A stretch of 64,000 bases of DNA from NCBI RefSeq assembly GCF_055900595.2, contig NZ_CM148325.1, one strand, 5' to 3'. Below the pieces are notes generated by a model. It saw only the letters and a list, made by a program, of their open reading frames with translations, did no database searches and was not told where the DNA came from. Both the position numbers and the translations under genes were made by a program. The stretch's first letter is position 1. The number at the start of each line of letters is the position of its first letter. Below are positions 25,371 to 27,719 of this stretch, piece by piece.

Positions 25371-27719
25371 CTACTCTTTTACTAATTTTCCACTTTTATC
25401 CCAGGCGGAGAACGGCATGGGTTTCTGGTACAGATACCCCTGAGCCTGAACACATCCTAATTTGATTAATTCGCGCGCAACGTCTTCGCTCTCTACGCCT
25501 TCCGCAATCACCGGGATCCGGTTATAGCGTGCCAGATCGAAAATAATGCGCACAATTTTCCCCGCAGTACCGAAAATATCGCCGGTAAATTGCGAGTCCA
25601 CTTTTATACTGTCTGGATTAATTTCATAAAAACGTTTCAGGTTTGACAAACCGGTGCCAAAGTCATCAATCGATATCCGTACCCCTTGTTTACGCAGTTG
25701 TTCAATATTGAGATAAAAATGTTCATTAATTCGCTCGATCACAGTTTCAGTGATCTCAACACAGAGGCTGTTCGCCTTCAGGCCATTTTCTTTCATGATG
25801 GTGGTAAAACGCTCATGAAAGTGTGGTTCGTTTAACTGCCAGGGCGAAACATTAATATGCAGTAAGAAACCGTCCTTCAGCGACGCACGCTGACTAAAAT
25901 GTCTAAATTCACCCATTGCCGTTTTAATAATCTGATAACCCAGCGCATTGATAAACCCGATATCTTCAGCAATGGTAATGAACTTCAGCGGTGAAATGAT
26001 CCCCCGCTCCGCAGACACCCAACGGCACAACGCCTCCGCGCCCAGAATGGCGCGGGTGTTAATATCAACGATCGGTTGATAGACCAGGAATAGTTCGCCA
26101 ATTTCCATTGCATGGCGAATATTACGCGCAATCCAAATATTCTCTTCTATTTCGTTGAGCTTCGCGTCATCACAGAAAATAAACTCTGAGAACATATGGT
26201 CACGGATACTGGAAATCGCCAGTTTCAGTTTTTCTGCGTAACTCCAGGCGTTTTCTCCCTGCAAAGGTTCACAAATAGCAGACTTATGGATGCGCAGATT
26301 GCGGTAGCCAAAGCTGCTGTCAAAATCGTTTATCGTCGCTATCTTACGGGTAAACGTCTGGACATTTTCCCGGCACAGGAGTAAATAAAGATCGGCATTG
26401 AATGTCACGATATCGCAGCATTGTGCATATTTCTCGGCAATTCGCTGACACAGTTTTCTGACGATTTTATTACGCTCATCGACACCAAACACCGCTTCAA
26501 CGGCTTCCAGGCCACACAGTTTGATGATCCCCACAGCCAGATACTGATTATTGTTGGACTCAATAATCGCCATATTTTTAATAAAACCGCTTTCTTGATC
26601 GTAAGAGATCAGCGAGAGCAATTTATTCGAACGTTCAATTTCGGCATCTTTCATTTCCGCGATCGAATTTTTGATGCTGATAATCTCTTTCGCATCGCCT
26701 TCGCGAATTTTCAGAGCCTCGATTTGATCCGTTGAGTCGGGCAAAAATGCCAGCGTATTAACCAGCTCGGTCATTTCAGAAAATTGCCGACGGAACACAC
26801 GAGTGGTCATTAAATAAACCACCAGCAATACGATAATAATGAAAGCAAACGGCAGATAAAAAAGTTTATCTGATGCGTTCAATAAATTACCGCCAGGATA
26901 ATAAAAATAGATTTCGAATAATGCGTTGTTTGGCACCGCTGATGTTTTTTCGATATATTCAGTATCGACAGAATCAATAATATTATAATTGCCTTCGCTA
27001 TTATAAATAATCAGTTTTTCACGAGCGAGTTGATTCTTGGCAATGATCTCATGGCCTTATTTCAAAAATAGAACTTCATCATTAGCGCTGATTTGATCAA
27101 GATACTCGTTCAGATATCGCCAGTTTAAATCGACATGAATTTTATCCACCACTAACAAATCGTGATCTTTGCCGTTGATGCGTAGCGTAAAAGAGATACA
27201 TTTTTTACCCGGACGATCAAAGCAATTGTATGCCGGATTCCAGCTGTTGTTAGAGTCATCTGAAGCCACAGACCACGGTCGTTTCGATGGGTTAAAATCG
27301 GCAAAAATAACCCGCCCTGACTCGTCGACAAGCGGTCCATTTACTTGTTCCTGATGATAAACAGCGATTTTATCATTTGCCCTCCGTGAAAAGAGATAAT
27401 ATTTATTATCATCAAGTACCAGTCCCACCGAGTCTAAAAATGGCATCATTTCCATTTTAAGGATCACAGCGCGTTGAATCTCCTCTGTATTTTTTAATAA
27501 ATACAGTGAGTCCTTTAATGTCAGGGCCGAACGTTCAATATCTTTAAAGAAATAGCCAACGTTTTTCTGAATAAGTTCAAAGCGGCTATCGGCACGTTTT
27601 ACCGCGCGTTCCGATACCAGTTGATAGTTAATGATGAAAAAAAGGCCAATAAATGACAGTGCTGCCAATAAAAATAAAATTATCAGCCTTATCTTTATCT
27701 TTTCGTATAAACTCAGCAT
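25371..27719 (-). pseudogene. pdeI: c-di-GMP phosphodiesterase PdeI (YliE), interrupted by in-frame TAA stop at codon 221
   Basis: ATG at 27719 to stop at 25371 is 2349 nt, the full length expected for a 782-aa PdeI, but plus-strand TTA at 27057..27059 is an in-frame TAA (...EVLFLK*GHEIIAKNQ...); C-terminal part keeps TM2 and the EAL motif (LGAEALCRW). Confidence 0.85.

Follow-up and report, generated by a model that had tools for sequence, protein, structure and literature searches.

A premature stop codon in pdeI of an Escherichia cryptic clade I clone, very probably a recent loss-of-function allele

PdeI (YliE) of Escherichia coli K-12 is an inner-membrane phosphodiesterase of cyclic di-GMP (c-di-GMP) composed of CHASE9, degenerate GGDEF and EAL domains. 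Overexpression of pdeI renders K-12 resistant to phage N4, as is also seen with other phosphodiesterases (PMC7553319). A single-cell study reached the opposite result: on overexpression of PdeI, described there as a membrane protein, c-di-GMP rose about 11-fold (PMC11651652). It is well documented that certain lineages of E. coli and Shigella have lost individual GGDEF/EAL genes, and in Shigella flexneri the genes dgcE, dgcQ and dgcN carry nonsense codons in their N-terminal sensor/membrane part, with the catalytic domain left intact (PMC11327459). Here, we analysed a 64,000-nt stretch of DNA (hereafter the window; NCBI RefSeq assembly GCF_055900595.2, contig NZ_CM148325.1) whose pdeI gene shares with K-12 PdeI the locus, synteny, length, Pfam domains and EAL motifs, but has TAA where Gln221 (CAA) stands in K-12. 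This gene is very probably a recent, inherited and clone-wide nonsense loss-of-function allele of pdeI in one clade I clone.

Translation of the minus-strand frame 25371..27719 revealed a single internal stop, at codon 221, in a frame of 782 sense codons plus the terminal stop, and the residues around it read ...NDEVLFLK*GHEIIAKNQLAREK.... Codon 221 is TAA (ochre) on the minus strand, equivalent to TTA at 27057..27059 on the plus strand, and its context is AAA-TAA-G, that is, UAAG in the mRNA. Both the translation and the codon read-out thus confirm the in-frame stop noted in a preliminary description of this DNA, as does the comparison of lengths for its statement that the full gene length is kept, pdeI being 2349 nt in the window and 2349 nt in K-12. 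Because of the TAA at codon 221, full-length PdeI cannot be made. The frame is split into two open reading frames (ORFs), the upstream one ending at 27057 and the downstream one, of 521 codons, opening with GTG at 26936 and ending at the native stop. The uninterrupted 782-aa reading frame is lost, and the window copy is a pseudogene or split allele of pdeI rather than a functional member.

The ancestral codon was identified by comparison with relatives. Eight complete genomes match the window pdeI at one mismatch short of a perfect score. In the nearest complete genome, Z0117EC0005, the sole difference lies at gene nt 661, which is C there and T in the window, so that CAA (Gln) becomes TAA; the derived base is window position 27059 (plus-strand A, coding-strand T). 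With one base differing from Z0117EC0005 across pdeI, the lesion is a point substitution and not an indel, as had been proposed. CAA is present at codon 221 in the four sequence type 485 (ST485) genomes inspected, in R32_14_1F, in EC42405 and in K-12, and alignment to relatives and K-12 accordingly gives CAA (Gln) as the ancestral codon. The intact ST485/cryptic clade I allele, WP_032302844.1, is the same as the window pdeI at 2348 of 2349 nt, with 15 differing sites in the flanking 46 kb; it differs in having C, not T, at gene nt 661, and is annotated as an ordinary coding sequence in the four ST485 genomes. Over window positions 1..45,990, four relatives (from Korea, Kenya, Japan and Gambia) are near-identical, with 15 shared differences from the window and zero indels. 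When R32_14_1F, EC42405 and K-12 were used to polarise these differences, seven, pdeI Q221* among them, proved to be derived on the window branch and the other eight in the sister clade. Since the ancestral base is found in the ST485 relatives, two clade I outgroups and K-12, the C-to-T transition is derived on the window lineage.

The sister genomes E400634, E200086, E500002, E600003 and 100117 are reported as ST485, OND:H45, 'Cryptic I' and eatA-positive in the GEMS study (PMC13064198), and EC42405 and 2013C-4282, which match less closely, are listed among the cryptic clade I strains with complete sequences (PMC10100065). These ST485 cryptic clade I sisters, together with the clade I outgroups, place the window in a clone of Escherichia clade I, closely sister to ST485. 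No MLST locus falls within the window; ST770 or an O9:H45 clade I lineage can be offered for the clone as no more than a guess. No other difference from Z0117EC0005 was found in the 2349 nt of pdeI, and thus no secondary degenerative lesion. A single change with no second lesion points to a recent event, and says nothing on selection acting on the remnant. A Shigella-like, pseudogene-rich origin of the window was also considered and rejected, as there are no insertion sequence (IS) elements, no indels against relatives in 46 kb and only 2 broken genes in 64 kb, and the relatives belong to ST485 of cryptic clade I.

The allele is present in many public assemblies. Counting exact-sequence matches only, per contig, the exact 220-aa truncated product was found on 217 public contigs (NCBI, ENA and Logan), the longest of which is a 5,491,225-bp chromosome, and the 521-aa downstream ORF on 199, compared with 55 for WP_032302844.1, the intact 782-aa allele belonging to the same background. 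One SPAdes contig, with 37x coverage and from ENA assembly ERZ25021421, matches the window at every base of a 6,663-bp stretch that includes the TAA, and the 220-codon N-terminal fragment is annotated there as a separate CHASE9 gene. Across 16.9 kb, 1 site separates the window from one carrier of a linked stop in potF and 4 sites separate it from another, indicating related but distinct isolates of one clone. A 30-mer centred on the T allele had no match in the 5,426 complete RefSeq E. coli genomes searched by megablast with a word of 28 nt, so that any match had to include the T, whereas a control 30-mer with the ancestral C had an exact match in 2,290 genomes. A false negative caused by low-complexity masking was rejected, given the genomes found with the C-allele 30-mer.

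A sequencing or assembly artefact, with C as the true base and pdeI intact, might be suspected from a single-base difference from otherwise identical relatives that occurs in no complete RefSeq genome. Against this stand the numerous contigs with the truncated product and the C-terminal ORF, as well as an independent Illumina-type assembly identical over 6.6 kb; moreover, the site, AAATAAGGCC, is not a homopolymer indel and is without a Dam or Dcm motif. An artefact is therefore a practically negligible prospect. The identical stop in many assemblies excludes a base-call error and marks the stop as an inherited feature of the clone, and a sense codon at 27057..27059 is in effect refuted by the same stop in many independent assemblies.

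The identity of the gene is well supported. The 2349-nt query matches the gene annotated pdeI in 5,422 of 5,426 complete RefSeq E. coli genomes, with a query coverage of at least 80% in 5,371 of them, and K-12 strains share 97.6-97.7% nucleotide identity with the window pdeI at 100% coverage. In the relatives, gsiA-B-C-D is followed by pdeI, dgcI and then rimO on the other strand, the same gsiD-pdeI-dgcI-rimO order is found in K-12, and the window is colinear with the relatives in this region. Synteny, K-12 identity and the CHASE9 and EAL domains all support the earlier assignment as pdeI (yliE). Pfam was run on the conceptually repaired PdeI, and transmembrane segments (TMs) were located by Kyte-Doolittle hydropathy with a 19-residue window. 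The resulting features, with their evidence in brackets, are as follows.

25371..27719, minus strand: pdeI (yliE) frame, interrupted at codon 221 (translation, annotation, synteny)
27057..27059, minus strand: premature TAA at codon 221, ancestral CAA (codon read-out, comparison with relatives)
27060..27719, minus strand: N-terminal ORF of 220 codons, with TM1, CHASE9 and part of the periplasmic region (product on 217 contigs)
27624..27692, minus strand: TM1, about residues 10-32 (hydropathy)
27270..27617, minus strand: CHASE9 periplasmic sensor, residues 35-150 (Pfam PF17153, E = 3.2e-62)
26802..26864, minus strand: TM2, about residues 286-306, beyond the stop (hydropathy)
25371..26936, minus strand: C-terminal ORF of 521 codons from GTG codon 262, with TM2, degenerate GGDEF region and EAL; candidate restart product (ORF call)
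25419..26126, minus strand: EAL domain, residues 532-767 (Pfam PF00563, E = 9.6e-69)
24035..25363, minus strand: dgcI (yliF), intact, 442 codons, GGDEF motif at residue 369 (ORF, motif scan)

Codon 221 lies past the Pfam-defined CHASE9 core and ahead of TM2. The hydropathy and Pfam positions bear out the preliminary description in placing the stop in the periplasmic segment, upstream of TM2 and EAL, and the in-frame GTG that it listed at 26936 exists, with TM2 (26802..26864) downstream of it. An RVFRR motif follows TM2 in the sequence and fits an N-out/C-in topology. The motif scan located the EAL-domain motifs EAL at 562, DDFGTG at 685, EGVE at 740 and QG at 760, and the sequence has the catalytic residues of an EAL phosphodiesterase (EAL, N, E-x-x-E, DDFGTG, K, EGVE, Q). 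All of the catalytic motifs are downstream of the stop and are thus relevant only with an internal start. In the degenerate GGDEF region, G412 was found within FGVDE; this residue is known in the literature from G412S (PMC11651652). Both pdeI and dgcI are AT-rich, with 41.7% and 43.6% GC, respectively, against a window average of 50.7%.

What is observed directly is the stop, the ancestral codon, the inheritance of the allele in the assemblies and where the domains lie. In the proposed course of events, a C-to-T transition (CAA Gln221 to TAA) would have occurred on the branch to one Escherichia cryptic clade I clone, sister of ST485, and the sequenced members of the clone would carry the Q221* stop by descent. 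Translation from the native ATG halts in the periplasmic loop and yields only a 220-residue fragment with TM1, CHASE9 and part of the periplasmic region and without TM2, the degenerate GGDEF region and EAL, hence without any domain in the cytoplasm, and the sensor-coupled full-length enzyme is lost. Approximately 1.7 kb of pdeI mRNA past the stop would be left largely untranslated, and the ATG of dgcI lies 7 nt beyond the pdeI stop (TAG), so that dgcI expression is probably lowered as well, through Rho-dependent polarity and the loss of translational coupling. In S. flexneri, DgcI functions as an active cyclase (PMC11327459). No direction can be assigned to the c-di-GMP effect, because the published data on PdeI conflict.

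Several points weigh against a loss of function shared by the whole clone. Contig counts are not isolate counts. The loss of PdeI activity may be incomplete. The mutation spares the catalytic half, which is preceded by an in-frame GTG whose surroundings are AU-rich and unstructured, much like those of the native start. Shigella diguanylate cyclase genes with nonsense codons upstream of the catalytic domain still give active products (PMC11327459). As for polarity on dgcI, the excess of C over G past the stop is weak, the best 80-nt window having 20 C and 12 G, and there may be an internal promoter upstream of dgcI. A promoter/terminator scan, aimed at an internal promoter that could drive dgcI or the C-terminal ORF, returned as many sites as expected from shuffled sequence.

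In another reading, pdeI is split but functional. Translation would then begin at GTG 26936 (codon 262), TTG 26882 (codon 280) or ATG 26810 (codon 304), to which we give a small chance, and the product, to which we give an equally small one, would be a sensor-less protein of degenerate GGDEF plus EAL, anchored by TM2 from GTG262 or TTG280 and soluble from ATG304, with its output uncoupled from CHASE9. Restart at GTG 26936 was put forward as speculation in the preliminary description, and it keeps that standing here. The in-frame starts past the stop include these three, TTG298, GTG300 and others, while a TTG at codon 219, upstream of the stop, runs into the same TAA. The catalytic half is whole and has the EAL motifs, and RVFRR after TM2 would suit the N-out/C-in topology of such a product. 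GTG262 lies in weakly folded RNA (-4.6 kcal/mol versus a gene background of -10.9 +/- 3.9, with -5.6 at the native ATG), the native ATG is also without a Shine-Dalgarno (SD) sequence (anti-SD duplex of +0.9 kcal/mol), and there is moderate SD-like pairing at TTG280 (-6.1) and ATG304 (-5.6). A precedent is provided by S. flexneri dgcE, dgcQ and dgcN, which with an upstream nonsense codon still yield c-di-GMP and several protein species (PMC11327459). However, most of those genes have an ATG no more than a few codons from the stop, and their activity was observed from plasmid expression (PMC11327459), whereas in the window pdeI the domain concerned is EAL and not GGDEF. Its nearest in-frame start, GTG262, is 41 codons (123 nt) beyond the stop and thus not close to it, and is itself without a Shine-Dalgarno sequence (anti-SD duplex of +0.1 kcal/mol), while a stable hairpin of -12.5 kcal/mol encloses ATG304. 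In addition, the 521-aa 'gene' of public annotations is a mechanical ORF call, and a pdeI allele with zero other changes has had too little time for conservation of its C-terminal ORF to be informative. If restart did occur, the allele would be a natural experiment parting the catalytic output of PdeI from its CHASE9 sensor, and might help to settle the dispute over whether PdeI lowers or raises c-di-GMP.

A second premature stop is present in the window. In potF (5801..6913, minus strand), codon 56 carries a derived change from AAA (Lys) to TAA (plus-strand 6746..6748); AAA is the codon both in the four ST485 relatives and in two clade I outgroups. The 55-aa potF fragment is found on 174 public contigs, and the potF stop is clone-wide and real. 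In ENA ERZ25021421 (NODE_22, 12351..13303), a gap of 1 base, as compared with potH of the window (3610..4563), splits potH into ORFs of 163 aa and 155 aa; this frameshift in one clone member suggests that decay of the potFGHI operon has continued after the potF stop. The seven derived changes on the window branch in 1..45,990 comprise 2 intergenic, 2 synonymous, 1 missense (yliI G251V) and 2 nonsense changes. Under unselected random mutation, the probability of at least 2 nonsense among 5 coding changes is about 0.01, a post hoc value from one window. Chance, a relaxation of selection, adaptive gene loss or a background of suppression could each account for the nonsense excess.

A suppressor background would ease the tolerance of such a nonsense excess (2 of the 5 derived coding changes, P about 0.01), and both stops are TAA followed by G (AAA-TAA-G in pdeI, ATT-TAA-G in potF), features that could be cited for readthrough by an ochre-suppressor tRNA of the clone or by programmed recoding, with full-length PdeI and PotF still being made. 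UAAG is, however, an efficient termination context in E. coli. No tRNA gene was found in the 64-kb window, the restriction of the stop to one clone, without conservation across lineages, speaks against programmed recoding, and the extra potH frameshift in one clone member indicates real decay of the pot operon. Considering also that the P value is post hoc and from one window, readthrough appears highly improbable. The same excess (2 of 5) could instead reflect adaptive knockout, in which loss of PdeI and of the putrescine-binding PotF would have been favoured in the niche of the clone, as in the pathoadaptive losses of Shigella. In line with this, the truncated allele outnumbers the intact allele of the same background (217 versus 55 contigs), pdeI has been broken independently in other lineages, and PdeI overexpression changes phage N4 susceptibility (PMC7553319) and c-di-GMP (PMC11651652). 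Yet contig counts mirror sampling and not fitness, and recurrent disruption is equally consistent with dispensability, so that we regard adaptive knockout as rather unlikely. It concerns the spread of the allele, and is compatible with a recent nonsense loss of function as the account of what the allele is.

The other broken copies of pdeI include one in strain 72322051416_S37 (NZ_CP160104.1), in which an IS903B insertion splits the gene into 'CHASE9 sensor' and 'phosphodiesterase' parts, and a 521-aa ORF that begins at the same GTG262 in a different allele background (GCS40815.1). As in the window, pdeI is broken in the sensor half in both, although the lineages are unrelated, and the CHASE9 and EAL parts are called separately; the lesions, however, differ and are of independent origin, and Q221* is specific to the clone of the window. 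Such recurrent disruption fits a dispensable gene. The pdeI Q221* allele is an ordinary recent knockout, a further instance of a familiar kind of event. It provides a clean single-base marker by which this well-sampled clone of clade I can be told from its sister, ST485. It is also a natural null or sensor-less allele of pdeI, in a lineage of clinical relevance that has been little studied, while the literature is divided over whether PdeI degrades or raises c-di-GMP. Together with the potF stop, it also shows that the two mechanical 'genes' which annotation pipelines will produce, the CHASE9 and EAL fragments, are best read as one pseudogene.

Beyond 1..45,990, the window departs further from its sister. 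Z0117EC0005 has two IS200/IS605 tnpA insertions that are absent from the window, beside ldtB/ybiR (~45,997) and ompX/opgE (~49,800); of these, at least the copy on the ldtB side also occurs in the other ST485 genomes inspected. Divergence from the ST485 sister is ~0.03% in 1..45,990, 1.05% in 45,994..49,802 and 0.55% in 49,792..62,577, a pattern that suggests a recombination boundary near ldtB/ybiR, at ~45,994. In the 46-64 kb part of the window, every gene is full length.

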